Of a stretch of 32,000 bases of DNA, positions 979-31,935 are shown piece by piece. The notes under the pieces were generated by a model. The model was not told the origin of the DNA. It did not search any database and was given only the letters and a program-made list of their open reading frames with translations. The number at the start of each line of letters is the position of its first letter. Position 1 is the first letter of the stretch. The position numbers and the translations under genes are program-made. This DNA is from Candidatus Electronema halotolerans (GTDB lineage Bacteria; Desulfobacterota; Desulfobulbia; Desulfobulbales; Desulfobulbaceae): the NCBI GenBank assembly GCA_942493095.1, contig OW818675.1:600001-632000 (forward strand). Direction: 5' to 3'.

Positions 979-4554
<3,576 letters not shown>

Positions 4555-4577
4555 AAGAATCTCCCTGAATCCTGAAG

Positions 4578-4607
4578 TTGACGTATCCCGGCGGGATGCC
4601 GTAAAAT
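4578..4607 (+). promoter_or_regulatory. candidate sigma70-type promoter, rightward
   Basis: TTGACG (4578-4583), an 18-nt spacer, then TAAAAT (4602-4607). It could drive the small Cys-rich ORF and rluB. Based on consensus match only. Confidence 0.3.
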
Positions 4608-4735
4608 AAAAATGTCTGAACGCAAGGGCTGATTGCGGCTTGCGATGATTTTTTGATATTATTAAGAGATAGACGGTGTTCCGGCAGCGCGGGCGGCGGA
4701 CGACCGCTATGCCTGGAAAAGAGCAGAAATTTATC

Positions 4736-4899: not shown

Positions 4900-5005
4900 A
4901 CAGCACCTGTCCGGCAATTGGCTTGTCTTTCGTATTCTGTCCACTTTTCCGGCAGCTTGATGCGTTCATGCCGCCAAATTTTCGCTAACCGCGTATCTGC
5001 CGATC

Positions 5006-5725: not shown

Positions 5726-5896
5726 TTACTTGCTAACAATTCCTTTACAATCAGAACGATACTGGCCATAATACAACGGAAGATAAATTTTGCCAGCCGA
5801 ACTCTGTTGGAGTGCGGTTTCAACAACAGGCAGCCCAAGTCCGTTTCTTGGGAAAATCAAGCAACTGGCTGCAACAAGAGGAGAAAATTGAACAGC

Positions 5897-6196
5897 ATGA
5901 ACAAATCAGAACTGATAGAGGCTCTGGCTGAAAAAGTCGATCTGCCGGTGCGTGAGACCGCGTCCGTGACCAAAACTATCATCGACACCATGAGCGATGC
6001 CTTGGTCAAAGGAGATTCGATTGAAATCCGTGGTTTTGGCAGTTTCACGGTCAAAAAGTACGGTGCCTACACAGGCCGCAATCCCAAGTCGGGCGAGCAG
6101 ATCAATGTGGCCCCGAAAAAACTACCCTTCTTTAAAGTGGGCAAAGACCTGCGCGAGCGGGTTGATGCCGCGATGCGGGAAGAGAAGGAGCAATAA
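5897..6196 (+). CDS. ihfB: HU/IHF-family DNA-binding protein, IHF-beta-like
   Basis: 99 aa from the ATG at 5897, with a GAGGAG SD at about 5878-5884. Sequence MNKSELIEALAEK...IEIRGFGSFTVKKYGAYTGRNPKSGEQINVAPKKLPFFKVGKDLRERV matches the IHF beta signature. The 30-aa upstream extension in the ORF track was discarded. Confidence 0.85.
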   Translation: MNKSELIEALAEKVDLPVRETASVTKTIIDTMSDALVKGDSIEIRGFGSFTVKKYGAYTGRNPKSGEQINVAPKKLPFFKVGKDLRERVDAAMREEKEQ

Positions 6197-8754: not shown

Positions 8755-9780
8755 ATGAAAGTAAATTATTCCGTTATGATGAAAGTAGCACTGTGCGCAA
8801 TGTTCTCGGCTGGCAACGGTTTTGCGGCAACAATTATAGTTGACAACAACCCGAACCACAGCGCAGATTACACGACCTTGCAAGAAGCTGTTGATGCGGC
8901 AACTGCTGGGGATACTATATTGATAGGACCATCTTTTAATGGAAACTCATACGGAGACGCAGATATAAAGAAAAAACTCTTTATTTATGGTACAGGATAT
9001 TTGCTTGAAGAGAATAATTACAAAGGAGGAGTTTCGCAGCTTGGATATATTACTTTTTGGGGTGATTTCATTGGCTTGTCTCCGAATGGTTCAATTATTT
9101 CTGGAGTAGAAGCTAACAGTATTGATATTTCAGTCCAAGACGATGAAGCTTACGTAATTGAGAATATTTCGATAAAAAGAAATAAAATCGGACAGGTTTC
9201 TTTGAATTCTTCTAATCAAGAGTTAAGAATTAAAGATATTATTATATCTAACAATATGATTACAGGAGGCGCGATTAGTATCGGAAATGCAATAGCTATT
9301 ATTAATAATAATATTATCAAAACCAATAGTACTTCAGGTACAGGTTTCGTGTGCTTTTCCGGGGAAATATTAATGTTTAACAATTCGTTTATTTATGCTA
9401 AAGCGTCTTTTAATCCATCACAAATGTTTAATGGAGAATGTTCAGGAGAAGTCTATGGTAATATATTTAATGAATATGAAAAAGGATCATCAATACCTGT
9501 AAATATCCATGATAATTACAATGGCACTTATACGGTATTGGAACAACAAGTTTATACATGGACAGGTTCTGAAGATTCTCAGTTTCAGCTCAGGGCGAAT
9601 TCTCTTGCCAAAGGCGCATGTTTGAATGGTGCAGACTGCGGCGCTTTTGCCGGTACGACCCCGTATATTCTGTCCGGCCTGCCGCCCCGTCCCAGAATAA
9701 CCAACCTTGAGCTGCCCGCTTCCGTGCTGAAAACCGATACAACCATGCAGGTTACAGTTTCTGCTGAAAGCCGCAATTAA
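8755..9780 (+). CDS. secreted right-handed beta-helix repeat protein
   Basis: 341 aa with an AAGGAG SD and a signal peptide (MMKVALCAMFSAGNGFA). The motif ATIIVDNNPNHSADYTTLQEAVDAATAGDTILIG and repeated NN-I-x-x-N turns are typical of PbH1/pectate-lyase-like folds. The gene is visibly AT-rich compared with its neighbours. Confidence 0.7.
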   Translation: MKVNYSVMMKVALCAMFSAGNGFAATIIVDNNPNHSADYTTLQEAVDAATAGDTILIGPSFNGNSYGDADIKKKLFIYGTGYLLEENNYKGGVSQLGYITFWGDFIGLSPNGSIISGVEANSIDISVQDDEAYVIENISIKRNKIGQVSLNSSNQELRIKDIIISNNMITGGAISIGNAIAIINNNIIKTNSTSGTGFVCFSGEILMFNNSFIYAKASFNPSQMFNGECSGEVYGNIFNEYEKGSSIPVNIHDNYNGTYTVLEQQVYTWTGSEDSQFQLRANSLAKGACLNGADCGAFAGTTPYILSGLPPRPRITNLELPASVLKTDTTMQVTVSAESRN

Positions 9781-16482: not shown

Positions 16483-19137
16483 ATGTTATCGGCTTTATTA
16501 GGGCAATATCTTGCGAAAAAGGCGGTGCAGAAAATAATCATCAACGCTGTATTCAGCGGCGCATTATCTTTGCTGAATCGGGATGCTCTGAACAAGGCAA
16601 TGAAGGAAGTAATCAAAGAACTTTTTGATCTGCTGGAATATGAACTTGGTCTTGACGAAGATACAGATACTGAAGAACTGATTCCAATTCGTCGGGCAGT
16701 TGATGCCTTCCTTGAGCAAGAGGCAGTGCAGCAGGCCATCATTTCTTTGCTCAAAGAACCGCAGTATCAGCTTGATGCCACAATTCTTGCTCAAGCATGG
16801 CAGGATGTTCAGGATGCGCCTGTGTTGCCGGAAGATTTCTCATGGCAGCGGATTAGCAAACATTTCAGCAAAAAGGCCAAGAAAATCCGCGACAGCATCC
16901 CGGAGCTGAAGGCTATCTTTGCCCAAGAACTGGCAGCTCAAGCAGACAAGGCCGTTGCAGACAACCTTGGCCCGCAGCCTGATTTTGATCTTGAAATCTA
17001 TGCCAAAGCATTGCTGGAGAAATTCGGCAGGCCGGGCAGTCTGGCTTTAGCAAGCGTTGATCTTGACGGCCCGGCGTATGATGCTGTCCGGCTCTGGCAG
17101 GTCTTTGTGCCGCAGTCGGTGCGGGAATGCGAGAAATTTCAGCCTCGGCATCTCGAACAGCCCAAAGGCGAGGAAGAGCGGCCAGAACGGCTGCGCCCGT
17201 ATTTTGATCAGCAGCCGCGCCCGGTGCTGGAAGTCTGCGCGGATCAGCAGCTTGAACGGATTGTCCTTCTTGGCGATCCCGGCTCCGGCAAATCCTCGCT
17301 GCTCCGCTTTCTCGCCTTGGAATGGGCGCGGGACAGCGACCCGAATCACCGCGCCCTTGCCCCGGTGCCGCTGCTGATTGAACTGCGTGAATACCACAGC
17401 AAACGCAGGCAGGGCGAGTGCAGCGACAGTTTTCTCAGCTACCTGCACAAGGCGTACTCGCTGCACCGCTTCAACCAGAATGCCCTTGCTGATTTGCTGA
17501 AAAGCAGGCCGGGCCGTTTTCTGCTCCTCTTGGACGGCCTTGACGAAATCTTTGACCGGCAGGAGCGCGAGCAGGTCATCAGCGACATCCATCGTTTCAG
17601 CAACGAATACAAAGGAGTGCGGATAATTGTCACTTCACGGGTGGTGGGCTATGAGGCGCACCGGCTCCGTGATGCCGAGTTCCGCGACTTCATGCTGCAA
17701 GATTTTGATGAAGAGCAGATTGAGGAATTTCTCAAGCTCTGGCACCAGATCACTTTCAGCGACCAAGAGGAGGTGGAGCGCAAGCGGCAGCGGCTGGCCA
17801 AGGCAATCGCCGATTCGCGGCCCATCAAGCTGCTGGCACGCAATCCGCTCCTGCTTACTCTGATGGCGATCATCAACCGTCATGAGGAATTGCCCAAAAA
17901 TAGGTTTGAACTTTACGAGAAAGCGGCCAAGCTGCTTCTCCAGAATTGGGACACGAAACGGCATTTGCAGGATTATCCCGGCCTGAGCGCGGAGATTGAT
18001 TTGCGGGCCAAGTCCGCAATCCTTCGCAAAGTGGCTCTGTACATGCAGACAGCTAACGACAAGGCAGCAAACCTGATTGAGGGCGAGCAGCTTGTCGGGC
18101 TACTTGAGGAATATCTGCACGATGAGCTGCGTTTCAGCCAAGCCCGTGCGGCGGCCAATGCTTTGGTTGAGCAGTTGCGGGAGCGCAATTTTATCCTCTG
18201 CTGGCTCGGCGGCGACAGCTATGCTTTTGTTCACCGCACCTTTTTGGAATATTTCTGCGCGGCTGAATATGTGCATCAGTTTGAGAAGAAACGCAGTCTG
18301 AGTCTTGATGATTTGTTGGCAGTGTATGATGCGCATTGCCGCGAGGACGACTGGCAGGAAGTGCTGCGCTTGATCTGCGGCCAGCTTGAGGAACACAAGG
18401 TTGATAATGAATGGATTGTCGAAAAAATTATTGAGCATTTGACCGCGCGGGTGGATTTGGAGAAGTGGGACAAAGAAACTCCGCTGCCTGAGTTAGCATT
18501 GGCAGTTTGGTGTTTGAGCGAGGTCAAAAATATAAATCTGATTGATGAAACAACAGGTGGAAAGTTACTGTTGAAAGTCTTTGACTTCTTCTTCATAGAA
18601 GAAAAGACGGATAATAGCTATGAGTTGTTTGTCGCTGCTAAAACTGTTGGAGAAAGATGGCCTGGGAAGAATATATTTCAGTTTGACGGCTTGTTCCCAG
18701 AGCAGAAAGAGAGGCCATATAGTATATATATTAGATGGTTTCAATTATTGGCGCATATTTTTCGTTGTCGGCAGTGGATAGAAAAATTTATTAATTCTGA
18801 TGATATAGAAATAAAAGAATCGTGTATTGCTATTATCTTGCAACATTGGCGTGATGACAGAACACATAAGATGCTTGTCAATGCTATGCAGGATAAAGAT
18901 ATTTCCGTCAGGCAAATTGCATTTTTTTCTTTTGTGGAATTCTTTCTATATGAAAAACTCCAAGGATCCGGTATTCCCCCAGACAAAATAGACGAGGCTG
19001 TGTGTTCGCTTTCAGCGGACATAATAGCGCACATAGTGCGCTCGCTTTCAGCGCACATAACAGACGAGGCTGTGCGTTCGCTTTCAGCGCACATGGGCTG
19101 GGACATCACCAAGGGCAGTTTGGCCGAGAAGCTGTAG
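16483..19137 (+). CDS. NACHT-domain STAND NTPase with helical N-terminal region and HEAT-like C-terminal repeats
   Basis: 884 aa with a GAGGAG SD. Walker A is RIVLLGDPGSGKSSLL (aa about 259-274). Walker B is FLLLLDGLDEIF (aa about 346-357). RIIVTSR is also present. The C-terminus has HEAT-like units (ILQHWRDDRTHKMLVNAMQDKDISVRQIAFFSF) and ends in three 12-aa repeats. The last 700 bp or so are visibly AT-rich. Confidence 0.85.
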   Translation: MLSALLGQYLAKKAVQKIIINAVFSGALSLLNRDALNKAMKEVIKELFDLLEYELGLDEDTDTEELIPIRRAVDAFLEQEAVQQAIISLLKEPQYQLDATILAQAWQDVQDAPVLPEDFSWQRISKHFSKKAKKIRDSIPELKAIFAQELAAQADKAVADNLGPQPDFDLEIYAKALLEKFGRPGSLALASVDLDGPAYDAVRLWQVFVPQSVRECEKFQPRHLEQPKGEEERPERLRPYFDQQPRPVLEVCADQQLERIVLLGDPGSGKSSLLRFLALEWARDSDPNHRALAPVPLLIELREYHSKRRQGECSDSFLSYLHKAYSLHRFNQNALADLLKSRPGRFLLLLDGLDEIFDRQEREQVISDIHRFSNEYKGVRIIVTSRVVGYEAHRLRDAEFRDFMLQDFDEEQIEEFLKLWHQITFSDQEEVERKRQRLAKAIADSRPIKLLARNPLLLTLMAIINRHEELPKNRFELYEKAAKLLLQNWDTKRHLQDYPGLSAEIDLRAKSAILRKVALYMQTANDKAANLIEGEQLVGLLEEYLHDELRFSQARAAANALVEQLRERNFILCWLGGDSYAFVHRTFLEYFCAAEYVHQFEKKRSLSLDDLLAVYDAHCREDDWQEVLRLICGQLEEHKVDNEWIVEKIIEHLTARVDLEKWDKETPLPELALAVWCLSEVKNINLIDETTGGKLLLKVFDFFFIEEKTDNSYELFVAAKTVGERWPGKNIFQFDGLFPEQKERPYSIYIRWFQLLAHIFRCRQWIEKFINSDDIEIKESCIAIILQHWRDDRTHKMLVNAMQDKDISVRQIAFFSFVEFFLYEKLQGSGIPPDKIDEAVCSLSADIIAHIVRSLSAHITDEAVRSLSAHMGWDITKGSLAEKL
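18985..19092. repeat. 3 x 36-bp tandem repeat, each unit containing a hairpin
   Basis: Units lie at 18985-19020, 19021-19056 and 19057-19092. They encode KIDEAVCSLSAD / IIAHIVRSLSAH / ITDEAVRSLSAH. Units 2 and 3 carry the inverted repeat GTGCG(C/T)T-cgctttc-AGCGCAC; unit 1 has a degenerate version (gtgtgtt...agcggac). Confidence 0.9.
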
Positions 19138-19569: not shown

Positions 19570-21702
19570 ATGCAGCATTCATCCAAAATCGCTCCGACAT
19601 GGACAGTCGGCCAAGATTCCTTTGCCCATATCTGCCGCTATCTCCAAGAACAGGCCGAGGACGGGGTCAAATACTTCTGCTTTGATTATTTCGACACCTT
19701 GGCGGTGCGCGAGATTGAGCCGGAATACAGCAAGCAGCTTGCCGCCCGTCTGCACAGCCAGCTCTTGGCGAGCAAAATGCCGCCGGAGCAGCTCTACGCC
19801 CTGCGCCAGCAGATCGAGCGAGAACTTTGCGAAGCAAGCGCAGCAGCAGGCGGCGAGCTGGAATTTTACATGCAACCCTTTATCCGCGCCTACCGCCAGA
19901 AATTGCTGGAGCAGCTTGGCTATCTTGCCCAACTCCGCGATGCGGAACGCTTCACGAAAATCATCCTTGCTCTTGAAACGACTGTAGAAAAGACAGTGCA
20001 GCAGCCCTGCGCCGAAGCTGTGCAGGTGCTCGCTTGGCTGCGACAGCAGGGTTTCCAAACCGTGCTGGTTTCAGATTTCTATCTGCCGAGCCGTTGCTTC
20101 ACCGAAATGCTGGCAAATCTGAGTTTGGACGGCCAGTTTGATCACATTTATATTTCCGCTGATCACGGCTTGGCTAAGTCATCTGGCAGGCTTTATGAAA
20201 AAATTTGCCAAGACCTAAACTGCCAGCCGGATGAGCTGTTGATGATCGGCGACAATCCCCATTCTGACGTGAAGCAGGCGCAGGAGAACGGACTGCGCTG
20301 TCTGCATCTGCTCAATCCTGCGCAAAAAGCATTCTACAAGCAATGGCAGCCTGCCCAGCTTGATGCGCCGGACAAGGCGCGGCAGCGATTCAACAAAGCA
20401 GCGGCTGAGTCCGGCCTGTTTAAGGAAACCGGCACCAGCCTCTGGCTCTTTACGTGGAATCTGCTCCAGAACTTGCTCCAACAGCAGACGCAGGATGTTT
20501 TCTTCTTTTCCAAAGAAGGCGAGTTCCTGAAAAAGCTGTTTGATCAGATGCAGGCCGACCTTTTCGGCAGGCCGGTCGTGCGCAGCCACTATTTGCTGGT
20601 TTCGCGCAAGGCCACCTTTCTTGCCTCGCTCAAGCCGCTGGACGAGGAAGATTTCAGCCGCCTTTTTTATTTCTACCGCAACATCTCGCCGCGTGATTTT
20701 CTTCTCAGTCTGAACATTGAGGAGCCGTTGGCCGCTGAACTCTGTCAGCAGGCTGGAGTGGATTTCCAGACCCGCCTACCGGATTTGGTCAATCAGCCTG
20801 CTTTTCAGCAGCTCTTGGCCTTTGCGCCCTTCCGGGAATTGTACGAGCAGCGGCGCAGCAGCCAGCGAAGGAATTTCATTGCCTACTTGGATTCCTTCAA
20901 CGTTGATTACAAAAACAATGTCCTGACCATTGTTGATGTGGGCTGGAAAGGGTCGATCCAAGACAATATCTGGCACATTCTTGGCGGACAGGTGCGGATG
21001 CAGGGTTATTACGCAGGCTTTCTTGATGCTGCGGTCAAGCAGCCGAACAACGACAAGCTGGGCCTGCTCTTTGACAACACCAGACCGCTGCCGTATTTCA
21101 ATGTCTATAACAACAACCGCTCACTCTTTGAGATGATGCTCGGTGCCTCGCATGGCAGCGCGGACGGTTATTTCACGGCAGAGGAATTTGCCAGCCAGCC
21201 TGATGATCATCATCGGGAAATACGCCAGCGCATTGAGACCGAATCTGGCGAATTGCTGATCGCTGCCTTAGATATGCCGGAAGAACGCGCCCTATTTGAA
21301 GAGAAAATCAGGCCGCTGCAAGAACAGATGCTGGCAGAGGCGGCCCGGCTCAATCTGGCCTGTCTTCGCTCCGGCTGCGCTGTGCCTGATTTAGAATGGT
21401 TCGCCCGCCGTCATGCCCGCATGGTTTTCCTGCCTATACGCAAGGAAGTTGAGTTTTTTGAAAATCTCTATCACTTAGAGAACTTCGGCGTGTTTGAATA
21501 CACCGACTTCCGCACTGGCAGCCGTCTTTCCCTGAAGCAGCGATGGAACAACTTTGTCAAAATGCGCAGCAATCCTGCCATGTTGGAAATGGGTATCTGG
21601 CCGCCGATTATTCTCCGGCGGCTGGGGCTGGACTGGTACCGGCACATCAACGGCAGAAGACGGTTTCAGCGGGAGTTTGGCAGCTATTTTTTCACGGATT
21701 GA
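19570..21702 (+). CDS. large HAD-superfamily hydrolase-like protein with about 450-aa C-terminal extension
   Basis: 710 aa. HAD motif I variant is YFCFDYFDTLAVRE, motif II-like is VLVSDFY, and motif IV is MIGDNPHSDV. From memory this resembles the COG5610-type predicted hydrolases with the FDxFDTL signature. The C-terminal part (VDVGWKGSIQDNI...) has no function I can assign. Confidence 0.7.
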   Translation: MQHSSKIAPTWTVGQDSFAHICRYLQEQAEDGVKYFCFDYFDTLAVREIEPEYSKQLAARLHSQLLASKMPPEQLYALRQQIERELCEASAAAGGELEFYMQPFIRAYRQKLLEQLGYLAQLRDAERFTKIILALETTVEKTVQQPCAEAVQVLAWLRQQGFQTVLVSDFYLPSRCFTEMLANLSLDGQFDHIYISADHGLAKSSGRLYEKICQDLNCQPDELLMIGDNPHSDVKQAQENGLRCLHLLNPAQKAFYKQWQPAQLDAPDKARQRFNKAAAESGLFKETGTSLWLFTWNLLQNLLQQQTQDVFFFSKEGEFLKKLFDQMQADLFGRPVVRSHYLLVSRKATFLASLKPLDEEDFSRLFYFYRNISPRDFLLSLNIEEPLAAELCQQAGVDFQTRLPDLVNQPAFQQLLAFAPFRELYEQRRSSQRRNFIAYLDSFNVDYKNNVLTIVDVGWKGSIQDNIWHILGGQVRMQGYYAGFLDAAVKQPNNDKLGLLFDNTRPLPYFNVYNNNRSLFEMMLGASHGSADGYFTAEEFASQPDDHHREIRQRIETESGELLIAALDMPEERALFEEKIRPLQEQMLAEAARLNLACLRSGCAVPDLEWFARRHARMVFLPIRKEVEFFENLYHLENFGVFEYTDFRTGSRLSLKQRWNNFVKMRSNPAMLEMGIWPPIILRRLGLDWYRHINGRRRFQREFGSYFFTD

Positions 21703-21783
21703 TTGCGGGCAGCGCAAGAGAGATTTCGTGAGATTTTTGAGCGCAACTTTTCGTAATATTTACAAAATAATCCCACCTCAGCA

Positions 21784-21843
21784 CCGATGACCCTGCCCGG
21801 CCCTTGGGTCTTTTTCCCGGAAAAATGAGCTGTTTGGCTTATT
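21784..21843 (+). promoter_or_regulatory. leader module copy 1 with mini-ORF MTLPGPWVFFPEK* (21787-21828) and stop-codon hairpin
   Basis: It shares ccgATGACC...TGGg..TTTTTCCc.g.aAAATGAG with 23119-23152. A 6-bp hairpin aatgag (21824-21829) - N8 - cttatt (21838-21843) contains the TGA. The module lies about 110 nt upstream of the FmdE-like start codon. Confidence 0.5.
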
Positions 21844-21891
21844 GTCCGGGCTGCTGGAATATGTTTTCTTGAAGGAAAGGCAAACAAACCG

Positions 21892-21922
21892 CTTGAGCGC
21901 AGGCTCAAGAGCATTTTTCTTC
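21892..21922 (+). terminator. candidate leader attenuator hairpin before the FmdE-like gene
   Basis: CTTGAGC-gcag-GCTCAAG forms a 7-bp stem (21892-21909). It is followed by agcaTTTTTCTTC and ends about 10 nt before the GGAGGAG SD of the gene starting at 21940. Confidence 0.4.
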
Positions 21923-21939
21923 ACCACAAGGAGGAGTAC

Positions 21940-23031
21940 ATGTTCCGCAGCAAAACAAGACACAAAAAACTGGCAGTGCTGATAGCCCTCACCGCAGGCT
22001 GCCTGATGCTGGCTTCTGTCACTTGGGCAGGCGGCAGCAATGCCGATTCCGAGTACAGCCGCTGGCAGAATGTCGGGGCGCAGGCCGCGTTCAAAGCGGC
22101 GGCGATGATCCGCAAGCAGTCGCCCGGATTCAAAACTGCTGACAGCATTGCCATGACCAATGCCGGTTATGCAGACATCAACGGCCAGTCAACAATGGCT
22201 GCGCTGGACGGCCTGAGCAGCGTTCTCAAGGTCAGCCGGGGCGCACAGAGCCTGATTGAAATCCACAGCTCGGCCAGTACGCCGCTTTGGTTTGCGGTCT
22301 ATGATAAAGATTCTGGCAACTGCGCCTACTTGCAGGTTGATCCGGCAGCCATGCAGGAAGAAGATGCGCCGCTCTTCAGCAAAGAGGCGGTGGAGCAGGT
22401 CAATGCCGAGCATCTCTTTGCCAATCCGGCTGAATACGGGCAGAAGTTTGATGACAAAGTCTTTGGCGGCAACGAGTTCCGCATTGTCACCATTGCCAAC
22501 GCGCTGACTGCCGGAGTTTCCACCAAGGCGTTGCGGGCCTTTGAGTTCCATGACCACTACTGCCCCGGCGTGACTTCCGGCATTTTGATGGCTAAATACA
22601 TTGAGCAGCATTTCAGCGGCAGCCTGTTCATTCAGAGCATTCAGCCGTGGTGCAAGGAAGATGCGTTGCAAGCCATCCTCAACACCACTCCGGGCAAAAA
22701 AGGTTATGATGTCCTTTATCCGACAGAAACTGATCTTGCCAATTGGCCGAACTGGGCCAAAGCCGCCTCCACCATTGTCTATAACAAAGCACCCGGTTCA
22801 GATATTTGGACCGGCACAGCCTTGGGATTCCAGTTCAGCGAGACCGGCTGCCCAGCCTACGGCCACAGCGTGTTAGACAAACTCTGCGCTGATCTCTGGT
22901 ATTTGGACAAGATGGATCGCCTAGAAGACTTCATCACGGTTGAGCACAACTTCCAGCTGGGCGCAGACAGTGACCCGAAAGAGCTGGCCCGTCCCGGCGT
23001 TGATCCAGTACGCATGATCACCAAATTGTAG
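21940..23031 (+). CDS. exported FmdE-domain protein
   Basis: 363 aa with an AAGGAGGAG SD. The signal peptide is KKLAVLIALTAGCLMLASVTWAGG. It carries the FmdE signature FEFHDHYCPGVTSGILMAKYI, plus further Cys residues (QPWCKED, ETGCPAYGHSVLDKLC). Confidence 0.75.
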   Translation: MFRSKTRHKKLAVLIALTAGCLMLASVTWAGGSNADSEYSRWQNVGAQAAFKAAAMIRKQSPGFKTADSIAMTNAGYADINGQSTMAALDGLSSVLKVSRGAQSLIEIHSSASTPLWFAVYDKDSGNCAYLQVDPAAMQEEDAPLFSKEAVEQVNAEHLFANPAEYGQKFDDKVFGGNEFRIVTIANALTAGVSTKALRAFEFHDHYCPGVTSGILMAKYIEQHFSGSLFIQSIQPWCKEDALQAILNTTPGKKGYDVLYPTETDLANWPNWAKAASTIVYNKAPGSDIWTGTALGFQFSETGCPAYGHSVLDKLCADLWYLDKMDRLEDFITVEHNFQLGADSDPKELARPGVDPVRMITKL

Positions 23032-23051
23032 CATCAGCAACGCTCTCTCCT

Positions 23052-23108
23052 GGCGGCAGCCGCAGCTCCTCTCCTCGTTCCTTTCTTTGCGGCTGCCGCC
23101 TTTTTCCC
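23052..23108 (+). terminator. intrinsic terminator after the exported FmdE-like gene
   Basis: GGCGGCAGCCGC (23052-23063) pairs with GCGGCTGCCGCC (23089-23100) in a 12-bp perfect stem with a 25-nt loop. TTTTT follows. Confidence 0.75.
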
Positions 23109-23118
23109 CTTCCTGCGC

Positions 23119-23166
23119 CCGATGACCTGGGCATTTTTCCCAGCAAAATGAGTCTTCCGCCTCATT
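23119..23166 (+). promoter_or_regulatory. leader module copy 2 with mini-ORF MTWAFFPAK* (23122-23151) and stop-codon hairpin
   Basis: This is the same module as 21784-21843 minus 12 nt (four codons, in frame). The hairpin aatgag (23147-23152) - N8 - ctcatt (23161-23166) contains the TGA. It lies about 90 nt upstream of the TonB-dependent receptor start codon. Confidence 0.5.
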
Positions 23167-23241
23167 GAACGGGCACTCGGAAAAAGTTATAAAATTTGAA
23201 CTTTGAGCTGGGTTTTCAGCATTCTTTCCGAGGTGAAGACA

Positions 23242-25455
23242 ATGAAGAAGAAAAAATATCAAAAAACTGTGCTGTTAGGACTTGCTGCCGCTGCTGCGGC
23301 CGGGCAGGGTTATGCGGCGGAAACCCAGATGGCGGAAGTGGTGGTCACTGGCGAGAAGCTGATCACGCCGACCATGCAGGCCAGCGAGACGGTCTATACT
23401 GGCAGCGAGATCACGCCCAAGGGCATTGAGATTCAGGGCGTGAAGGCCAGCACCAGTGTTTATGGCACCTTGGACATGCTGCCGGGCGTGAACGTTGAAA
23501 GCGCGGACAGCAGCGGCCTTGCTGCCGAAACAGGCAGCATCCGGGTGCGCGGCGTGCGCAGCTCAATGGGGGCTATGACCGTGGAAGGAGTGCCCAACTA
23601 CGGCGGCAACCCAATTGGCCCGCGTGATTATCTTTATGACCTTGAGAACATGCGCGGCGTGTCCATGTACAAGGGAGCCGTGCCTGGCGACATCGGCACT
23701 GGGGTCGGCTCACGCGGCGGCGCGATTGAGCTGCGGCCTGCTTGGCCGGACGGCGACCTTGGTCTGCATTTCAAGCAGAGCTTTGGCTCCAACAGCTACA
23801 CCCGCAGCTATTTCCGGGTTGATTCCTGCCCCCTGCCTGAGACCGGCACCAGCGCATCAGCAGCCTTGTCCTACAGCGAGGCGGACAAATGGCGCGGCCC
23901 TGGAACCTTGGGACCGCGAAAGAACGCCAATCTCAGCCTCAATCAGCCCTTGGGCGACAAGGCGGACATCAAGCTCTGGTACAACCACAACGATCTGGAC
24001 CAGCATCTGTACCGCTCCCTGAGCTGGGATGAAATTCAAGACTTGTCAGCCAATTACGACAAGGACTACAATGCCTCCCTGACCGGCATTCCAGCCCAAG
24101 ATATTGATTATTACGACTACAACCGGGGCGAGTATCAGAATGACGACATCCTTGCCGTGATGACCATGCAGGTCACAGATGCCCTGCGCCTGACCGCCAA
24201 GCCCTATCACAGTGAGGAAGACACGCACATCCTCCAAGGCTCCACCACCAGCGGCGGCTCGGTGCAGAAACGAACCCGCGACATCACCCGCTCCGGCATC
24301 ATCGGCGAGGCCCTGCTGGAGCGCGGCGAGGTCAAGGCGACGCTGGGCTATCATTTTGAAGATGGGGAAATGAACATCTTCACCCAGAATTACGCCATGA
24401 CCAAATCCGGTCTTGATTACCGAGGCTATGGCCGGATGTCAGCCAGTGAAGGCAGCAACTATCTCAACAGCCCGTATTTCAAGCTGGCCGGCAGTCACGG
24501 CCCGTGGGACTGGCAGGCAGGTCTGAAGTATTTCCACTATGAGGAATCGTCGAGCCAAGGCTATGTTTCCGGCCCTGGCCCGGCCTATGCCCTCAAGCGC
24601 GCCCCTGATCTGGACCGCAGCGGCGGCGATTTGGACATCTGGCTGCCCACCGCAGGCGGCGCCTGGCACTTCAACGACAAGATGGAGGCTCATGCCAGCT
24701 ACGGCAGAACCTTTATCCGGCCCTATTCCTACATGCCGCTGCACAACATCTACCTTGCCAACCGGGACGCATTTCAGGCCCAAGGCATCAGTCTGCAAGA
24801 CCTGTTTAACGGCTACGACTTTGAGCGGGCCAATATTGTTGATGTTGGTCTCCGCTGGACTGAGGAGCGGTTTGAAATTGCCCCGACCTTTTTCTATGGC
24901 AAGCATGAGGACCTGCTGACCACCATTTATGATCCCCGTGTTGATCTCAACTATCAGCAGAACGTGGGCGAGGCCACCGGCATGGGCCTTGATCTGGAGA
25001 TGAACGCCTTTTTGGACAAGGGCCTGACCCTGTTCTTCAATCCGACCTACACTTCCATGACATACGACAATGACCTGACCTATGCGGGCAAGACCCGGCC
25101 CACCAAGGACAATCAGGTCATTGACACCCCGGAATGGATGCTCAAGACCGGCCTGATCTGGAACTGGCGGGAGTTTGAGGTCGTGCCCATGCTGCGCTAT
25201 ATCGGCGAACGCTATGTCGATGCGGAGAACATCAATGAGGTGGATTCAGCCATTGTCGCTGACCTGCGGATGAGCTACACGCTGCCGCAGCTACTCCAGA
25301 GCAAGGAGGCCAAGCTCTCCTTGGAGCTGAACAACCTGTTTGACAAAGAATACATCTCCAGCATCAATGGCTCGGACGACAGTCGGAACGGGCAGGCCAG
25401 CTTTTATCAGGGCGCGCCTTTTGCGGCCATGCTGACTTTTTCTTTGCGCTACTGA
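23242..25455 (+). CDS. TonB-dependent outer-membrane receptor
   Basis: 737 aa from the ATG at 23242, with a GAGGTG SD. The signal peptide is MKKKKYQKTVLLGLAAAAAAGQGYA. A TonB-box/plug start is present (ETQMAEVVVTGEKL), followed by a plug region (IRVRGV). The beta-barrel body is Y/G/N-rich and ends in the terminal aromatic LTFSLRY. Confidence 0.9.
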   Translation: MKKKKYQKTVLLGLAAAAAAGQGYAAETQMAEVVVTGEKLITPTMQASETVYTGSEITPKGIEIQGVKASTSVYGTLDMLPGVNVESADSSGLAAETGSIRVRGVRSSMGAMTVEGVPNYGGNPIGPRDYLYDLENMRGVSMYKGAVPGDIGTGVGSRGGAIELRPAWPDGDLGLHFKQSFGSNSYTRSYFRVDSCPLPETGTSASAALSYSEADKWRGPGTLGPRKNANLSLNQPLGDKADIKLWYNHNDLDQHLYRSLSWDEIQDLSANYDKDYNASLTGIPAQDIDYYDYNRGEYQNDDILAVMTMQVTDALRLTAKPYHSEEDTHILQGSTTSGGSVQKRTRDITRSGIIGEALLERGEVKATLGYHFEDGEMNIFTQNYAMTKSGLDYRGYGRMSASEGSNYLNSPYFKLAGSHGPWDWQAGLKYFHYEESSSQGYVSGPGPAYALKRAPDLDRSGGDLDIWLPTAGGAWHFNDKMEAHASYGRTFIRPYSYMPLHNIYLANRDAFQAQGISLQDLFNGYDFERANIVDVGLRWTEERFEIAPTFFYGKHEDLLTTIYDPRVDLNYQQNVGEATGMGLDLEMNAFLDKGLTLFFNPTYTSMTYDNDLTYAGKTRPTKDNQVIDTPEWMLKTGLIWNWREFEVVPMLRYIGERYVDAENINEVDSAIVADLRMSYTLPQLLQSKEAKLSLELNNLFDKEYISSINGSDDSRNGQASFYQGAPFAAMLTFSLRY

Positions 25456-25528
25456 GCCGCGCCGGATGCTCGCGGCTTTGGCGGGCAAATTTTTGCATTG
25501 CAACTTTCATCAGCACAGGAGAATTTTT

Positions 25529-26062
25529 ATGAGCACAGAGAATGACTGGGACCAGTGCGTCGCCTTTCATGGCCATGAATGCCCCGGATTAGCGATTGGC
25601 TATCGGGTGGCCAAGGCGGCGCAGAAACGATTGGGCGTGAGCTTCTCGCCTGACGAGGAAGTGGTCTGCATTACGGAAAATGATGCCTGCGGTTTAGATG
25701 CCGTGCAGTTTCTCACTGGCTGCACCTTGGGCAAGGGCAACCTGATTTACCGCGACCGGGGCAAGCAGGCTTTCAGCTTTTTCGTCCGCCCCCAGAACAA
25801 AAAGCTGCGGGTGGTGCTGTCGCTAAAGTTTGACCGGGACAAGATGGACCGGGAAGCTCTGAAAAAACAAATACTCACCATGCCGGATGAGGACTTGTTC
25901 GCCTTCAGCGAGCCGAACTACGACCTGCCGAGCCGGGCGCGGATTTTCAAAAGCGTGACCTGCGAACAGTGCGGCGAGACCTGCTCCGAGCGCAACGTCC
26001 GTTTGCACGAAGGCAGGCAGTTCTGCATGGATTGCGCCCCGGATTATTCGCGGGGCTGGTAA
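25529..26062 (+). CDS. cytoplasmic FmdE-family protein with C-terminal zinc ribbon
   Basis: 177 aa from the ATG at 25529, with an ACAGGAGAA SD. The sequence reads MSTENDWDQCVAFHGHECPGLAIGYRVAKAA and carries the C-terminal motif CEQCGETCSERNVRLHEGRQFCMDC. There is no signal peptide. Confidence 0.85.
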   Translation: MSTENDWDQCVAFHGHECPGLAIGYRVAKAAQKRLGVSFSPDEEVVCITENDACGLDAVQFLTGCTLGKGNLIYRDRGKQAFSFFVRPQNKKLRVVLSLKFDRDKMDREALKKQILTMPDEDLFAFSEPNYDLPSRARIFKSVTCEQCGETCSERNVRLHEGRQFCMDCAPDYSRGW

Positions 26063-26140: not shown

Positions 26141-27706
26141 ATGAACCATCGCTTCTGCCAGATTATCTTTTTCCTCGCCGCAGTCTTCTGCCTCTTCTTT
26201 GCCGGCGCGGCAGCCGCAGCCCCTACAGAAATCCGCATTGCTGATTCCAACGGCGACTGGGGCTATCCCAATCCGTACCGCCACTATCCACGCGGGCCAG
26301 GCTACATCCGCATGAGCATGGTCTTTGACACCCTGATCTGGAAGGACGAAAAGGGCGCGATTCCGGCCTTGGCCCTGTCGTGGGACTATCAGCCGGAAAG
26401 CCAGAGCTGGGTCTTCAAACTGCGGGACGGCGTGAAATGGCATGACGGCCAGCCCTTCACGGCGCAGGATGTGGTCTTCACGGTGAAGTACATGCAGGAG
26501 CACCCCTACAGTTGGATACGGCTGAACAAGATTGCCAGCTGCGAGGCCAGCGGCCCGCTCCAAGTGACGATCAAGCTCAAGGAGCCATACGCGCCTTTCC
26601 TCTCTTTCATGGAGACCATGCCCATCCTGCCGGAGCATGTCTGGAACAAGATTGATGAGCCGAAAAAGTATGAAGGCATGGACAGCTTCATCGGCACTGG
26701 CCCGTACAAGTTCATCAACTTTGACAAGGTCAAAGGCAGCTATCTCTTTGAAGCCTTTCCTGACTATTACTTGGGCCGCCCCAAGATCGACCGCCTGATC
26801 TACATCCGGGCCGATGACCCGATTTTCGCCCTGCTGACCGGCAAGGCTGATTTGGTTGGTATTGAGCCGAACATGGCTGCCATGCTCAAAGGCAAAGGCA
26901 TGACCGTGATTGAGGACAAGCGGAGCTGGAACCGGAAGCTGATGATCAACCACCACAAGGAGCCATTCAGCAATAAGAAGTTCCGCCATGCGCTGGCATA
27001 CTCCATCAACCGACAGGAGTTGATCGACAAGGGGCATCAGGGCTTTGGCACCGTGGCTTCCTGCGGCCTGCTCTCGCCGGATCACGAGTTCTACAACCCG
27101 CAGACTCCAACGTATGAATACAGCCCGGCAAAGGCGGGTCAGCTACTGACTGAGCTGGGCTACAGCAAGGGCGCGGACGGCTTTTTCAGCAAAGACGGCA
27201 AACTGTTGACTGTTCACCTGCTCGCCTCGGCTATGGGCAGCACCGACCGGGACGGCGAGATCATCCGCCAGCAATTGGAAAAGGCGGGAATCAAGGTTGA
27301 TTTGCAGAACATGGAGAAGACTGCGGCGGACAGCAAGATCATGAACTGGGATTTTGATCTGGCGGTTTCCGGGCACGGCGGCCTGCTTGGCGATGCCGTG
27401 CTGCTCAACCGTCTGCTTGGCGATGATCAGTCTGCTGGTTCCATCAACTCGGCCCGCTATCAGGTCAGCGAGGAGCTGGGCAAGCTGTTTAAAGCGCAGG
27501 TGCGGGAGATGGACAAGGAAAAACGGCGGCAGTTAGTCTGGAAAATTCAGGAAATCGCTGCGGATGAGCTGCCTGCCCTGCCGCTCTACTATCCAAAGGC
27601 CATGTCTGCCTATAATCCGGCCAAGGGCGTGCAGTGGCAGTACACGCCCGGCGGCGTGGGCAACGGGGTGCCAACCCCTCAGAATAAAATTTTCTTAGTC
27701 CGTTGA
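26141..27706 (+). CDS. ABC transporter substrate-binding protein, family 5 (NikA/DppA/OppA type)
   Basis: 521 aa. The signal peptide is IIFFLAAVFCLFFAGAAAAAP. Family-typical segments include LALSWDYQPESQSWVFKLRDGVKWHDGQPFTAQDVVFT and FRHALAYSINRQELI. Confidence 0.9.
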   Translation: MNHRFCQIIFFLAAVFCLFFAGAAAAAPTEIRIADSNGDWGYPNPYRHYPRGPGYIRMSMVFDTLIWKDEKGAIPALALSWDYQPESQSWVFKLRDGVKWHDGQPFTAQDVVFTVKYMQEHPYSWIRLNKIASCEASGPLQVTIKLKEPYAPFLSFMETMPILPEHVWNKIDEPKKYEGMDSFIGTGPYKFINFDKVKGSYLFEAFPDYYLGRPKIDRLIYIRADDPIFALLTGKADLVGIEPNMAAMLKGKGMTVIEDKRSWNRKLMINHHKEPFSNKKFRHALAYSINRQELIDKGHQGFGTVASCGLLSPDHEFYNPQTPTYEYSPAKAGQLLTELGYSKGADGFFSKDGKLLTVHLLASAMGSTDRDGEIIRQQLEKAGIKVDLQNMEKTAADSKIMNWDFDLAVSGHGGLLGDAVLLNRLLGDDQSAGSINSARYQVSEELGKLFKAQVREMDKEKRRQLVWKIQEIAADELPALPLYYPKAMSAYNPAKGVQWQYTPGGVGNGVPTPQNKIFLVR

Positions 27707-28695
27707 TGCAGTTACGCTCTTCCGGGCGGCGCAGGAGCAGGCGGACAGACCTGCTGCTCACCTGCGCCCTCTCAGCCCTGCTGATGATCTGGATGAGCCA
27801 TGCTCTGCCCCGGCTGCTGCCCGGCGACTTTGTCACGGCCATGTATGCCAGCTCCGAGGATGTCATCCTCAGTGCCGAGCAGGAAGCGGAGCTGCGGGCC
27901 TATTACAGCCGCGAGGCGGGCTTTGGCCAGTATCTGCTCCGGCTGGCCAAGTTGGACTGGGGCTATTCCTATGCCTTCATGGCCCCGGTCTCAGAGCTGT
28001 TTTTCAAAGCACTGCCGTGGACGCTGCTGCTCCTGCTCTCGGCCAATCTGATCGCCGCTGTGATTGGCTTTATTGCCGGAGTGGAGGCCGCCTCACGTCG
28101 CAACAGCGGCTTGGAGCGCGGTTTGGTCAGTCTCAGTACGATTATGGAGGGCATCCCGGAAATTTGCACCGGAGTGCTCCTCTTAGCCGTTTTCTCGCTC
28201 TGGCTGGGCTGGTTTCCCTCGTCCGGGGCCGAAACCGCTTATGCCGAGCTGTCCTTCAGCGGCTGGCTTTTAGATGTGCTCCATCATCTCACCCTGCCGC
28301 TGCTCTCCTTGGTGCTGGCTTACCTGCCCGGCAACTTCCTCCTCACCCGCACCAGCATGGTGATGGTCATCCGCCAGCCCTACATCCGCACCGCACAGGC
28401 CAAGGGCTTGTCAGCCGCCCGCATTCGTTACGCCCATGCCGCCCGCAATTGCCTGCTGCCCTTGGTGACGCGCTTCGGAATGCGCTTGGCCTTCATGGTC
28501 ACTGGCGCGCTGGTGGTGGAGCGCATTCATTCCTATCCCGGCGTGGGCACGCTGCTTTTCAATGCCATCCGCCTGCGCGACCTGCCCGTGATTCAGACTG
28601 TGGTGCTGATCTCCTCGCTCATGGTGCTGGCCGCCATGACCAGCTTGGAGTTTGTCTATGGCTGGCTTGATCCACGGGTGAAAGAGGGACGGTGA
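27706..28695 (+). CDS. ABC transporter permease (NikB/DppB type)
   Basis: 329 aa from the ATG at 27706, which overlaps the SBP stop codon (TGATG). It has an LPGDFV N-terminal motif, multiple TM segments and the C-terminal YGWLDPRVK. No second permease or ATPase gene follows. Confidence 0.9.
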   Translation: MQLRSSGRRRSRRTDLLLTCALSALLMIWMSHALPRLLPGDFVTAMYASSEDVILSAEQEAELRAYYSREAGFGQYLLRLAKLDWGYSYAFMAPVSELFFKALPWTLLLLLSANLIAAVIGFIAGVEAASRRNSGLERGLVSLSTIMEGIPEICTGVLLLAVFSLWLGWFPSSGAETAYAELSFSGWLLDVLHHLTLPLLSLVLAYLPGNFLLTRTSMVMVIRQPYIRTAQAKGLSAARIRYAHAARNCLLPLVTRFGMRLAFMVTGALVVERIHSYPGVGTLLFNAIRLRDLPVIQTVVLISSLMVLAAMTSLEFVYGWLDPRVKEGR

Positions 28696-29054: not shown

Positions 29055-30359
29055 GGGAACCTCGAAAAATTTGAGATAAAGTTTTTTCAGCTTATCAATA
29101 GTGTCTTTGACAGTTGAAAATTTCAAATACATAAATTGTTATTTCCTGTTTTTTATTTATTTTGAGCAAACTTCCGTTGAAATATGTTCCTGAATGCGTT
29201 TCTTTTTTTTAAATCTTAAATTTTATTAAGAGTTCCGTACCTGTCAATATTGAACGTCAAGTTTCTCAAGCCTATTTTCGCAGCAGCGCGAATGAAACCT
29301 GTTCCTCGGAGAATCATATTGCCAGCACGTTGCGCCTGGATGCCGAAGACGTGTTCAATCCGGGAGCGAATTTTTGATCTTGTCCGATTTCCCTGCTTCT
29401 CCCATTCGGTCAGTTTCCGGCTTCGTGTTCCTTTGCGGTTCAGATGCTCTCTGTATCCATTCTCGTTCAACCAGTTGAGCTTTTTTTCGGATCTGTATGC
29501 CGAATCCGCATAGATATCCCGACTGGTGTTGTCAGGGTCAAGCAGCTCCTCAAAAATATTGCTGTCATGAACCTCGGCGCTGGTCACCGCATATTTTCGG
29601 ATGAATTTATGCTTCACATCAACAGATATATGATTTTTATAACCAAAAAAGCTTCTGCCGTTCTTTTTGGTCCAACGGGCATCAGTATCCTTCTGCGCCT
29701 GCTTATTCTCACTCCATCCTTCAGGCTGTTCACCATTCTTGATCTGCTTGTTTTCCTTGCGGCTGTTACGCTGGATCGGGGCGTTGACTATGGAAGCGTC
29801 GACTATCTGCCCTTTTCTGGCTTGATATCCATTTTCATCAAGAAATTCGTCAAAAACAGAAAACAGTTCCTCGATTTTTCCTGCTTTGGTCAAAGTTTCA
29901 CGAAAAAGCCATATCGTTGTCGCATCTGGAACTTTGTCAGCCGCCCGAAGTCCAAGGAATCTGGAAAACGAATATCTGTCAAGAATTTGATATTCCATCC
30001 CTTTATCAGAAAGATTGTATAATGATTGCAAAATTAAAATTTTGAACATCATGACTGAATCATAACCTTTAGCTCCAGCATTTGATTTCACAGGCTTTCT
30101 TTTTGCTTCTTCAAGAATTGGCCGAAATATTTCCCAGTCAATAGCCTTGTTGATCTTAACTAAAGGATCACCTGCTTTGTCAATTCGGGAAAGACGAATA
30201 TAAAAATCAAAAAATCCAAGTTGGTTCATCTGTGCATCTCCGGCAGCATGAGTTGAATTGATGCCGAAATTATAACATAATAGACTGAAATTTCAATATT
30301 AAAATAAAAAATAACAAAACAAATGCAGCAGAATGGATGTTGTATTTTTCGAGGAACCC
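29055..30359 (-). mobile_element. intact IS5-family insertion sequence, 1305 bp
   Basis: Terminal inverted repeats are GGGAACCTCGAAAAAT (29055-29070) and GGGTTCCTCGAAAAAT (reverse complement of 30344-30359), identical at 14 of 16 positions. They are flanked by a 4-bp direct repeat TCAA (29051-29054 and 30360-30363). A single transposase ORF lies inside. Confidence 0.85.
29216..30229 (-). CDS. IS5-family DDE transposase
   Basis: 337 aa. The N-terminus MNQLGFFDFYIRLSRIDKAGDPLVKINKAIDWEIFRPILE is InsH-like. DDE region motifs are VDASIVNAP, IYADSAYRSEK and RSRIEHVFG. Confidence 0.9.
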   Translation of the reverse strand: MNQLGFFDFYIRLSRIDKAGDPLVKINKAIDWEIFRPILEEAKRKPVKSNAGAKGYDSVMMFKILILQSLYNLSDKGMEYQILDRYSFSRFLGLRAADKVPDATTIWLFRETLTKAGKIEELFSVFDEFLDENGYQARKGQIVDASIVNAPIQRNSRKENKQIKNGEQPEGWSENKQAQKDTDARWTKKNGRSFFGYKNHISVDVKHKFIRKYAVTSAEVHDSNIFEELLDPDNTSRDIYADSAYRSEKKLNWLNENGYREHLNRKGTRSRKLTEWEKQGNRTRSKIRSRIEHVFGIQAQRAGNMILRGTGFIRAAAKIGLRNLTFNIDRYGTLNKI

Positions 30360-31646: not shown

Positions 31647-31689
31647 GCGTCAACGGCAGCTTGGCCTGCCGCTTCACATCAAGAGAGAT

Positions 31690-31833
31690 GTTTCAGTGAA
31701 CGGAACACGGTGCGATTCCGTGGCATTCCCGATGCTGTGACCCCGAATAAGCTCTTCAGCAGATTGCAGCCACTGTTTTTCGTAAACGGGAAGGCTGCTG
31801 AATGAGCGGGGAAGCCAGAAGACGAACTGAATG
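31690..31833 (+). promoter_or_regulatory. cobalamin (B12) riboswitch aptamer
   Basis: P1 pairs ttcagt (31692-31697) with actgaa (31826-31831). Core elements are GGTGCGATTCCGTGG (31709-31723), CCCGATGCTGTGA, GCCACTG (31769-31775), CGGGAAGGC (31787-31795) and the B12 box AAGCCAGAAGAC (31812-31823). They occur in the same order as in the btuB-type consensus. Confidence 0.8.
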
Positions 31834-31935
31834 TCGATATTTTTTTTGCGAACGCGATGGCAAAGGGTTCCGCAGAGCAATTGTTCTGCTGGAACCCTTT
31901 CCGCTTCCGGCAGGGCAAAACCTACAAGGTGCGTC

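Follow-up and report, generated by a model that had tools for sequence, protein, structure and literature searches.

Two stretches of a 32,000-nucleotide window of Candidatus Electronema halotolerans (contig OW818675.1; "the window" is the whole of this stretch) lie upstream of the genes for an exported FmdE-like protein and a TonB-dependent receptor (TBDR). They are two copies of one module, which is read here as a DNA-level promoter-operator cassette of a metal-uptake regulon, with a probability of roughly 0.65. Taken separately, the module probably acts as DNA, that is, as a promoter with an operator and not as a leader peptide or an RNA, and there is good reason to regard it as the mark of a metal (nickel) acquisition regulon. 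In the loci compared, the cassette is a specific feature of cable bacteria, namely Candidatus Electronema and Electrothrix.

Two copies of the module in the window

Copy 1 (21784-21828) reads ccgATGACCctgcccggcccTTGGgtcTTTTTCccggaaAAATGA and copy 2 (23119-23151) reads ccgATGACCTGGgcaTTTTTCccagcaAAATGA, the letters quoted in the initial annotation being found at these coordinates. That the two stretches are copies of one module is borne out by the sequences themselves and by two counts. A 19-nucleotide (nt) degenerate pattern common to both, TTTTTCCCRGMAAAATGAG, occurs twice in the window with 0 mismatches, against a chance expectation of 0.05 matches when 3 mismatches are tolerated. Moreover, a 73-column profile of 40 homologues finds exactly two copies in the window, with 49.0 and 55.7 bits, and no third one. 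The module is longer than initially delimited, since the similarity continues 3′ through TTGnnnGGGC to about 21870 and 23193, giving extents of 21784-21870 for copy 1 and 23117-23193 for copy 2. Its parts are as follows.

21795..21809, plus strand: GC-rich inverted repeat 1 of copy 1, GCCCGG-ccc-TTGGGT; the 3′ arm is also the left half of site A
21805..21820, plus strand: site A of copy 1, palindrome TGGGT-N6-CCCGG, centred at about -65 from the predicted start (family alignment columns 22-36)
21822..21844, plus strand: site B of copy 1, AAAATGAG-N8-CTTATTG, a 20-base-pair (bp) inverted repeat AATGAG/CTTATT centred at about -43.5 and overlapping the -35 TTG
21842..21870, plus strand: predicted sigma70-type promoter of copy 1 (family pattern; in relatives, NikR-type boxes lie directly 3′ of the hexamer)
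21892..21919, plus strand: terminator-like hairpin in the leader of copy 1, CTTGAGCGCAGGCTCAAG then AGCATTTTTC, situated 3′ of the predicted start and 5′ of the ribosome-binding site for the 21940 gene
23117..23132, plus strand: GC-rich inverted repeat 1 of copy 2, GCCCG-atgacc-TGGGC, with the ATG (23122-23124) of a putative small open reading frame (mini-ORF) inside its loop
23127..23143, plus strand: site A of copy 2, palindrome CTGGGC-ATTTTT-CCCAG (family alignment, pair counts)
23145..23167, plus strand: site B of copy 2, AAAATGAG-N8-CTCATTG (pattern and family alignment)
23165..23193, plus strand: predicted promoter of copy 2, with -35 TTGAAC (23165-23170), GGGC (23171-23174), a 17-nt spacer and -10 TATAAA (23188-23193) (sequence and family pattern)

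The inverted repeat AATGAG-N8-CTYATT is present in both copies as first described, with the 3′ arms exchanged in that description: CTTATT belongs to copy 1 and CTCATT to copy 2. The palindrome TTTTTCC-c-GGAAAAA reported in copy 1 is real and located at 21811-21825. A 12-nt in-frame indel, given as the sole length difference between the copies, depends on the alignment. With MAFFT and in the family-wide ungapped, core-anchored alignment, GCCCGG-ccc-TTGGGT of copy 1 stands opposite GCCCG-atgacc-TGGGC of copy 2, and ATGACC of copy 2 is the loop of the GC-rich inverted repeat.

A family with fixed spacings in cable bacteria

A profile made from the two window copies already detects homologues on the coding strand, 5′ of genes, in Electronema and Electrothrix loci. 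An exact scan of a metagenome collection with the strict core CCC-N3-AAAATGAG-N8-CYYATTG-N4-GG returned 35 contigs, and metagenome contigs and genome loci (designated below by L numbers) together gave 40 non-redundant instances, of which L097 was later discarded. The pattern match at L097 6200-6350 was rejected as a module; it belongs to an array resembling clustered regularly interspaced short palindromic repeats (CRISPR), in which the unit ...TTTTGATCCCTATTGCTCTGGAATTAAGATAGAAC repeats with spacers. Variant copies were added by the profile search in L079 (2935-3003), L080 (2183-2250), L100 (4910-4957), L106 (3053-3121), L114, L116, and L117.

It can be observed in the core-anchored alignment that the spacings are invariant throughout the family, GGG-N7-CCC-N3-AAAATGAG-N8-CYYATTG-N3-GGG(C), the spacer of site B being 8 nt in all members. 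The family consensus of site A is CGGGC-ATTTT-GCCCG with its fixed GGG-N7-CCC spacing. Because all core spacings are fixed, a protein-DNA site is likely, in agreement with the initial annotation, which had named a protein operator as an alternative. Furthermore, each module lies 5′ of a co-directional open reading frame (ORF) wherever the sequence sufficed (L097 excluded). Upstream, the GCCCG...CGGGC inverted repeat 1 is found in about 27 of the 40 members with a loop of 3-13 nt. A GC stem of 5-8 bp is common, and ATTTT follows it in about two thirds, with AAGCTG, GGAATG or GATAAG in the rest. This repeat is tentatively read as a terminator- or insulator-like element for upstream transcription that shares its 3′ arm with site A.

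Among 76 genome loci with FmdE-like homologues, taken from a wide range of Desulfobacterota, the module was found only in cable-bacterium loci, with one apparent exception. The latter, L007 (JADGDO010000021.1), is binned as Candidatus Fermentibacteraceae and has two modules together with an FmdE-like gene and Nik-type genes of the sort usual in cable bacteria, probably through mis-binning or horizontal transfer. The closest relatives of the FmdE-like protein of the window are likewise from cable bacteria, both Candidatus Electronema and Electrothrix. Behind the TBDR gene of L002, a terminator-like hairpin is overlapped by a degenerate module copy (AAAACGAG...CTCATTG, 9488-9524); next come a canonical TTGACA-N17-TATAGT promoter and a cyclic di-GMP (c-di-GMP) type I riboswitch (RF01051, 9679-9756).

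A promoter-like element at the 3′ end of the core

The core-terminal ATTG supplies a TTGnnn, which is followed in 31-34 of the 40 modules by a TG positioned for a spacer of 16-18 nt and then by T(T/A)(T/A), the invariance of TTG being built in, as TTG belonged to the search pattern. The usual form of the -10 region is (T)ATGGTTTAnT or TGTGGTAnnnT. This arrangement resembles that of extended -10 sigma70 promoters (TRTGn), which have TTGnnn, 16-18 nt, TRTGn and a T/A-rich hexamer. It differs from them in the conserved GGGC of the spacer and in the hexamer, where A is often missing from -11. Copy 2 fits the sigma70 pattern well (TTGAAC-N17-TATAAA), and copy 1 fits it poorly (TTGTCC-N17(..TATGT)-TTTCTT), with -35 TTGTCC at 21842-21847, GGGC at 21848-21851, a 17-nt spacer ending in TATGT and a weak -10 TTTCTT at 21865-21870. 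A sigma70 consensus scan of 21500-23400 reported nothing above threshold; because a T is demanded at the final -10 position, TATAAA escapes it.

The surroundings of the module bear on this assignment. A 12-bp GC-rich terminator with a T-run stops 12 nt 5′ of copy 2, and in L001, L104, L079, and L116 the upstream gene ends, at its stop codon, no more than about 30 nt from the CCC; no conserved promoter-like block was found 5′ of the module. Since the terminator and the stop codons abut the modules, the space needed for a separate upstream promoter is lacking. The promoter assignment is supported by two independent observations: the module abuts the end of the upstream unit, and NikR-type boxes follow the hexamer. 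Transcription would start near 21877 for copy 1 and 23200 for copy 2, placing the predicted starts about 60 nt and 40 nt, respectively, 5′ of the start codons. With TTG as the -35 element, the centre of palindrome B falls at about -43.5 and that of palindrome A two helical turns further 5′, at about -65; GGG occupies -29 to -27. The positions of palindromes A and B would be those used by class I and class II activators, including GerE proteins of the LuxR/TraR type.

The conserved blocks could also be arranged as the promoter of an alternative sigma factor of the extracytoplasmic function (ECF) type, for example with AATGAG as -35 and the GGGC block as -10. These blocks are about 17 nt apart and both strongly conserved, and TonB-receptor genes are often ECF-controlled, as in FecI-type systems. 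However, neither block is like the GAAC-like -35 or the CGTC-like -10 of known ECF promoters, no sigma or anti-sigma genes were seen beside the modules, and the conserved TRTGn box and the position of the NikR-type box would be left unexplained, which makes this arrangement improbable. A sigma54 promoter (-24 GG / -12 GC) was rejected by eye, its spacing being unfit for either copy.

Downstream of the predicted start, the leader of copy 1 holds the hairpin listed above, and the predicted leader of copy 2 (23207-23229) holds a short hairpin, GCTGGGTTTTCAGC, and a T-rich run, ATTCTTTCC, just 5′ of the ribosome-binding site. Judging from their sequences, the hairpins at 21892-21919 and 23207-23229 could be attenuators or stabilising stem-loops; similar ones are present in L115 and L117.

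The mini-ORF is not conserved in the family

In both window copies an ATG and a TGA stand in frame, the TGA ending 112 nt (copy 1) and 91 nt (copy 2) 5′ of the start codons at 21940 and 23242. The initial annotation had therefore put forward a short leader peptide, MT(LPGP)W(V/A)FFP(E/A)K, on which the ribosome would be stalled at Pro/stop by a ligand in the manner of TnaC. An in-frame walk upstream from the invariant TGA was carried out for 38 non-redundant modules. Only 8 have an in-frame ATG before the next stop, the ORF having 6-25 codons in 6 of these 38, and 7, without any ATG, run into an in-frame stop after 1-8 codons. The TGA itself belongs to AAAATGAG, which accounts for its invariance. 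Hence the nucleotide motif, TGA included, is kept across the family, and the ATG (absent in 30/38) and the frame (broken in 7/38) are not, the very outcome that the initial annotation had named as refuting its mini-ORF.

The orthologous locus L115, 95% identical to the window, has TTG in place of the copy-2 ATG. Its copy-1 "ORF" differs by four substitutions, three nonsynonymous and one synonymous, a very small sample with no synonymous excess. Neither ATG of the window is preceded within 15 nt by a purine-rich Shine-Dalgarno sequence (cctcagcaccgATG; cctgcgcccgATG), as had been remarked earlier. A 9-codon ORF, M-x-W-x-F-C-P-x-K, recurs in L098 and L108; the recurrent peptide W/R-A-F-C/F-P-x-K is the mere translation of the conserved DNA block CGGGCATTTTGCCCnnnAAAATGA. 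Compared with TnaC-type leaders, the window copies alone show the short ORF, the Trp and the Pro near the stop. The module differs from such leaders in that its start codon and frame are not conserved, no Shine-Dalgarno sequence is present and it probably lies 5′ of the transcription start. A leader peptide can thus be credited with hardly any probability. It should be noted as a caution that a DNA palindrome, if conserved, can give the impression of a "conserved mini-ORF" when it is translated in only two copies.

Tests for a conserved RNA structure

A different account would have the module transcribed as a cis-regulatory RNA, which might sense metal in the manner of a riboswitch or be a leader bound by a protein, and in which the segments GCCCG, CGGGC, GCCCR and YGGGC (seg1 to seg4) form mutually exclusive helices around the AAUGAG-N8-CUCAUU hairpin. 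The plus-strand fold of both copies is indeed three-way, with seg1:seg4 enclosing seg2:seg3 and hairpin B. In addition, G.U combinations occur in the seg1:seg2 repeat, A.C combinations do not, and three of its variants are compensated, its loop length varying between members, and the orientation of the module to the downstream gene is constant.

The pair counts nevertheless led to rejection of the helices concerned. For P1 (CCC:GGG with flanks) together with hairpin B (AAUGAG/CYYAUU), the covariation was 0.052 against a shuffled mean of 0.061, with 453 of 500 shuffles at or above the observed value. For the seg2:seg3 hairpin (CGGGC/GCCCR) it was 0.140 against 0.121, with 88 of 500 shuffles at or above it. 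P1 stops at three invariant G-C pairs, CCC:GGG, and the flanking A is never opposite U (pair 36-64). The arm change between the window copies had been described as keeping the pairing through G-U; across the family, an A.C mismatch occurs at one pair of the same helix in 12 of 40 modules (30%), and the variant 5′ arms AATAAG, AATGAA, ATTGAG and AACGAG are never accompanied by a compensating change. The loop of B, as stated above, is invariably 8 nt. Folding of the window copies against shuffles gave modest values (z = -1.9 and -1.3), and in the upstream inverted-repeat region the plus strand gains nothing over the minus strand in folding. Rfam 15 yielded no match to either copy, neither at gathering thresholds nor, over 21500-23400, with E values relaxed to 10. 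Furthermore, with a terminator or stop codon abutting the module, no upstream promoter is apparent from which it would be transcribed, and the sole conserved promoter-like block is 3′ of the core. A cis-acting RNA is consequently unlikely. A pairing of CCGCC in loop B with GGCGG after the core, seen by eye in several members, was dropped, being missing in others including copy 1.

Still in terms of RNA, a new metal-responsive switch can be drawn in which CGGGC switches between two pairing partners, GCCCG on its upstream side and GCCCR on its downstream side, and an adjoining invariant AAAAUGAG...CYYAUUG element might bind nickel or a nickel-loaded protein; this version is disfavoured and of low probability. 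The module resembles NiCo (czcD) and other Rfam metal riboswitches in its position 5′ of metal-transport genes, and differs from them in having neither an Rfam match (E = 10) nor covariation.

NikR-type boxes downstream of the core

The described delta-proteobacterial NikR operator is GTGTTAC-N13/14-GTAACAC, with a reversed form in Desulfotalea and boxes of 27-28 bp (PMC545781). In 7 of 39 modules, a reversed NikR-type box (GTAAYAC-N13-GTRTTAC) scoring 10/14 or more begins 17-21 nt 3′ of the core, with the hexamer immediately before it. Random 70-nt windows reach this score in 1.6% of cases and a score of 12/14 in 0 of 4000. The boxes are found in L002 (5794-5820), L003 (1726-1752), L089, L106 (3316-3342), L109, and L102. 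Near the window copies there is no such box, the best score of 7-8/14 being background. NikR-type repression usually acts through an operator covering the -10 and the start site, and these boxes imply that in cable bacteria FmdE-like and TonB-receptor genes would carry a NikR signal of the Desulfotalea type.

It could be supposed that the core palindrome is itself the NikR operator of cable bacteria, given that the regulon looks like nickel uptake, that the half-site ATGA resembles enterobacterial GTATGA and that a truncated NikR_C ORF lies near one locus. The spacing ATGA-N10-TCAT is, however, unlike the 27-28 bp of the described boxes (PMC545781), and the separate boxes of delta-proteobacterial type 3′ of the same modules make a second, different site for NikR unlikely. 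Because these separate boxes sit downstream of the same modules, the core is not taken as a NikR site, a reading with a very small chance of being correct. The module has in common with delta-proteobacterial NikR operators the probable control of nickel uptake, such boxes sharing module promoters in Electrothrix relatives; the difference is that the boxes form a separate element 3′ of the -10 and that the core has another sequence and spacing.

A tblastn search of the fetched DNA with E. coli NikR, Fur and RcnR gave only the truncated NikR_C ORF, in L099, and one Fur-like match in an unrelated locus. The match of the L099 ORF (2559-3035, plus strand) is confined to the nickel-binding C-terminal domain of NikR (PF08753, E = 9e-16), without the ribbon-helix-helix, and the ORF abuts the start of the sensor kinase gene. 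Either a remnant of NikR or a nickel-binding domain that stands alone may be encoded here.

Genes that follow the modules

The genes 3′ of the modules point to metal uptake, probably of nickel, and the earlier proposal that homologous modules would precede metal or TonB genes is upheld. TBDR genes follow modules in the window, L002, L078, L080, L086, L089, and L106, and ExbB/ExbD genes in L079, L084, and L107. Nik-type ATP-binding cassette (ABC) ATPases and a permease are found in L007, L102, and L105, a NicO-family transporter with a His-rich loop in L100 and DUF4198 in L096. Exported and small FmdE proteins are encoded in the window, L001-L003, L092, L116, and L117, and an exported double tetrapyrrole-methylase protein in L007. 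A conserved Cys-rich protein of about 75 amino acids (aa) is repeatedly the first gene after the module (L079 at about 5612-5900, L081, L093-L095, L098). It has no Pfam family (...EYDCPLTHKHVQLK...CCSNVGQCGCDVVRIIYGMSYTVDWKKCSLYS...) and is, by its composition, a candidate metal-binding protein. A module in L108 would drive a CACCHGG-repeat peptide with four AAPCACCHGGAYQ repeats (about 635-830), and one in L100 a 350-aa protein (3615-4667, minus strand) whose Cys-rich tail ends in CACDCCCYGCDACSGCDGCSGCDCCGACDCSC; both products are strikingly rich in Cys/His. Nickel acquisition is indicated by these regulon genes together with the NikR-type boxes.

A candidate two-component regulator

One histidine kinase-response regulator (HK-RR) pair of NarX/NarL type recurs beside the modules, the kinase having HAMP, HisKA_3 and HATPase domains and the regulator Response_reg and GerE domains. 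Its orthologues end directly 5′ of a module in 7 of 10 loci (L001, L104, L099, L096, L100, L080, and L114). The regulator gene of L001 occupies 4977-5636. The gene after the module varies among the HK-RR loci, being FmdE-like, DUF4198, NicO or a receiver protein, and in L100 a second module lies 5′ of the kinase-containing operon. Full-length homologues of the kinase occur in cable bacteria only. Its extracytoplasmic domain of about 150 residues carries invariant histidines and His-rich stretches. The N-terminal sensor and HAMP of the kinase are also found in the Electrothrix diguanylate cyclases P0195 and P0196 (48-50% identity over 55% of the query), and this sensor type may also feed c-di-GMP signalling. 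As far as gene order can tell, the link between the HK-RR pair and the module is frequent, not obligatory, and is suggestive; that the adjacent NarL-type regulator is the protein binding the module is a tentative proposal, somewhat short of an even chance.

Positions and half-sites can be compared with known systems, the positional comparison depending on the predicted start site. Site B, a 20-bp inverted repeat at about -43.5 overlapping the -35, is like the lux-box and tra-box of LuxR/GerE activators. Site A, GGG-N7-CCC near -65, is like the NarL-family sites of DosR type, which have a GGGAC...GTCCC core. As in those systems, a GerE-type response regulator gene adjoins many modules. The difference from all three is that two distinct palindromes are combined in one cassette and that the half-sites AATGAG and CGGGC are not known to match any described regulator.

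Proposed working of the cassette

In the 5′ to 3′ direction the cassette would consist of the GC-rich inverted repeat, palindrome A at about -65, palindrome B at about -43.5 over the -35, GGGC and the extended -10. The promoter would be an otherwise weak one of sigma70 type, dependent on a bound protein. A kinase would sense the periplasmic metal status, and the phosphorylated NarL-type (GerE-type) regulator would bind at palindromes B and/or A, in class I/class II positions, and activate the promoter. At some Electrothrix promoters, the window copies not being among them, NikR would add nickel-dependent repression through the separate box at the start site. The family with its fixed architecture, the loss of the ORF, the lack of RNA covariation, the genes of the regulon, the neighbouring regulator genes and the placement of the NikR-type boxes are shown; we infer where transcription starts, which protein binds, whether it activates or represses, and to which signal or metal it responds. 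The module is outside the leader-peptide, riboswitch and NikR-operator families, whose defining features it lacks. In its working it would come closest to an activator site of the lux-box or NarL type to which an extended -10 promoter is attached.

Several observations weigh against this reading. The loop of inverted repeat 1 is variable, and three of its variants look compensated (CCCAG/CTGGG, CCCAC/GTGGG, GCCCA/TGGGT), so that this repeat looks more like a nucleic-acid hairpin than a protein site; about one third of these repeats are without a U-run, which in turn weakens the terminator or insulator view. The halves of the cassette are asymmetric, with 6 nt from CCC to ATGAG and 5 nt from CTCAT to GGG. 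The predicted -10 hexamer often has T at -11 in place of the near-universal A (TTTACT, TTTGAT; TTTCTT in copy 1), and the putative promoter is assigned by consensus match only. Of three further two-component loci that were fetched, two (L112 and L113) carry no module after the regulator gene, and there is no HK-RR system among the genes of the window. Nickel as the signal rests on annotations and on the NikR-type boxes of relatives; cobalt or another metal is possible.

Cable bacteria conduct electricity over centimetres by way of periplasmic fibres thought to contain nickel. The motif would provide a sequence handle on the control of nickel supply in these organisms and define a lineage-specific regulon, with NikR-type boxes layered onto some of the same promoters. 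It also nominates a sensor kinase and response regulator specific to cable bacteria as the controller, and the uncharacterised regulon members as proteins that might take part in nickel trafficking or cofactor assembly. No description of such a motif, regulon or regulator in cable bacteria came up in the literature searched. The interest is in the nickel biology of cable bacteria and not in a new regulatory principle, the motif being new and of an ordinary kind.

Genes around the window copies

The genes and the terminator next to the two copies, identified by Pfam in the case of the genes, are as follows.

21940..23031, plus strand: exported FmdE-like protein, 363 aa (Pfam FmdE), 3′ of copy 1, which would drive it
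23052..23105, plus strand: strong intrinsic-terminator-like hairpin (GGCGGCAGCCGCAG...GCGGCTGCCGCC + TTTTT) at the 3′ end of the FmdE-like gene
23242..25455, plus strand: TBDR, 3′ of copy 2, which would drive it, and heading an operon of TBDR, small FmdE, binding protein and permease
25466-26062: small FmdE protein
26141-27706: Nik/Opp-type family-5 solute-binding protein
27703-28695: ABC permease

The gene order of TonB-dependent transporter and Nik/Opp genes seen in the window is known for cable bacteria; the 2024 comparative genomics study of their nickel homeostasis that describes it mentions no regulator or regulatory site (PMC11247825). After 28695, the second permease and ATPase genes expected of a Nik/Opp-like operon are missing, and a DDE transposase gene (29216-30229, minus strand; DDE_Tnp_1 and DUF772) lies 3′ of the permease end. 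The operon may have been truncated by an insertion sequence element.

Two other features of the window are of minor interest. A STAND NTPase gene (16483-19137, plus strand), NACHT with an NNH2 N-terminal domain, is located two genes 5′ of copy 1; STAND NTPases of this NACHT/NNH2 kind are typical of anti-phage or conflict systems. Finally, a cobalamin riboswitch aptamer (RF00174, 71 bits, E = 7.6e-16) is present at 31677-31845 on the plus strand, and the gene it regulates extends beyond the window.

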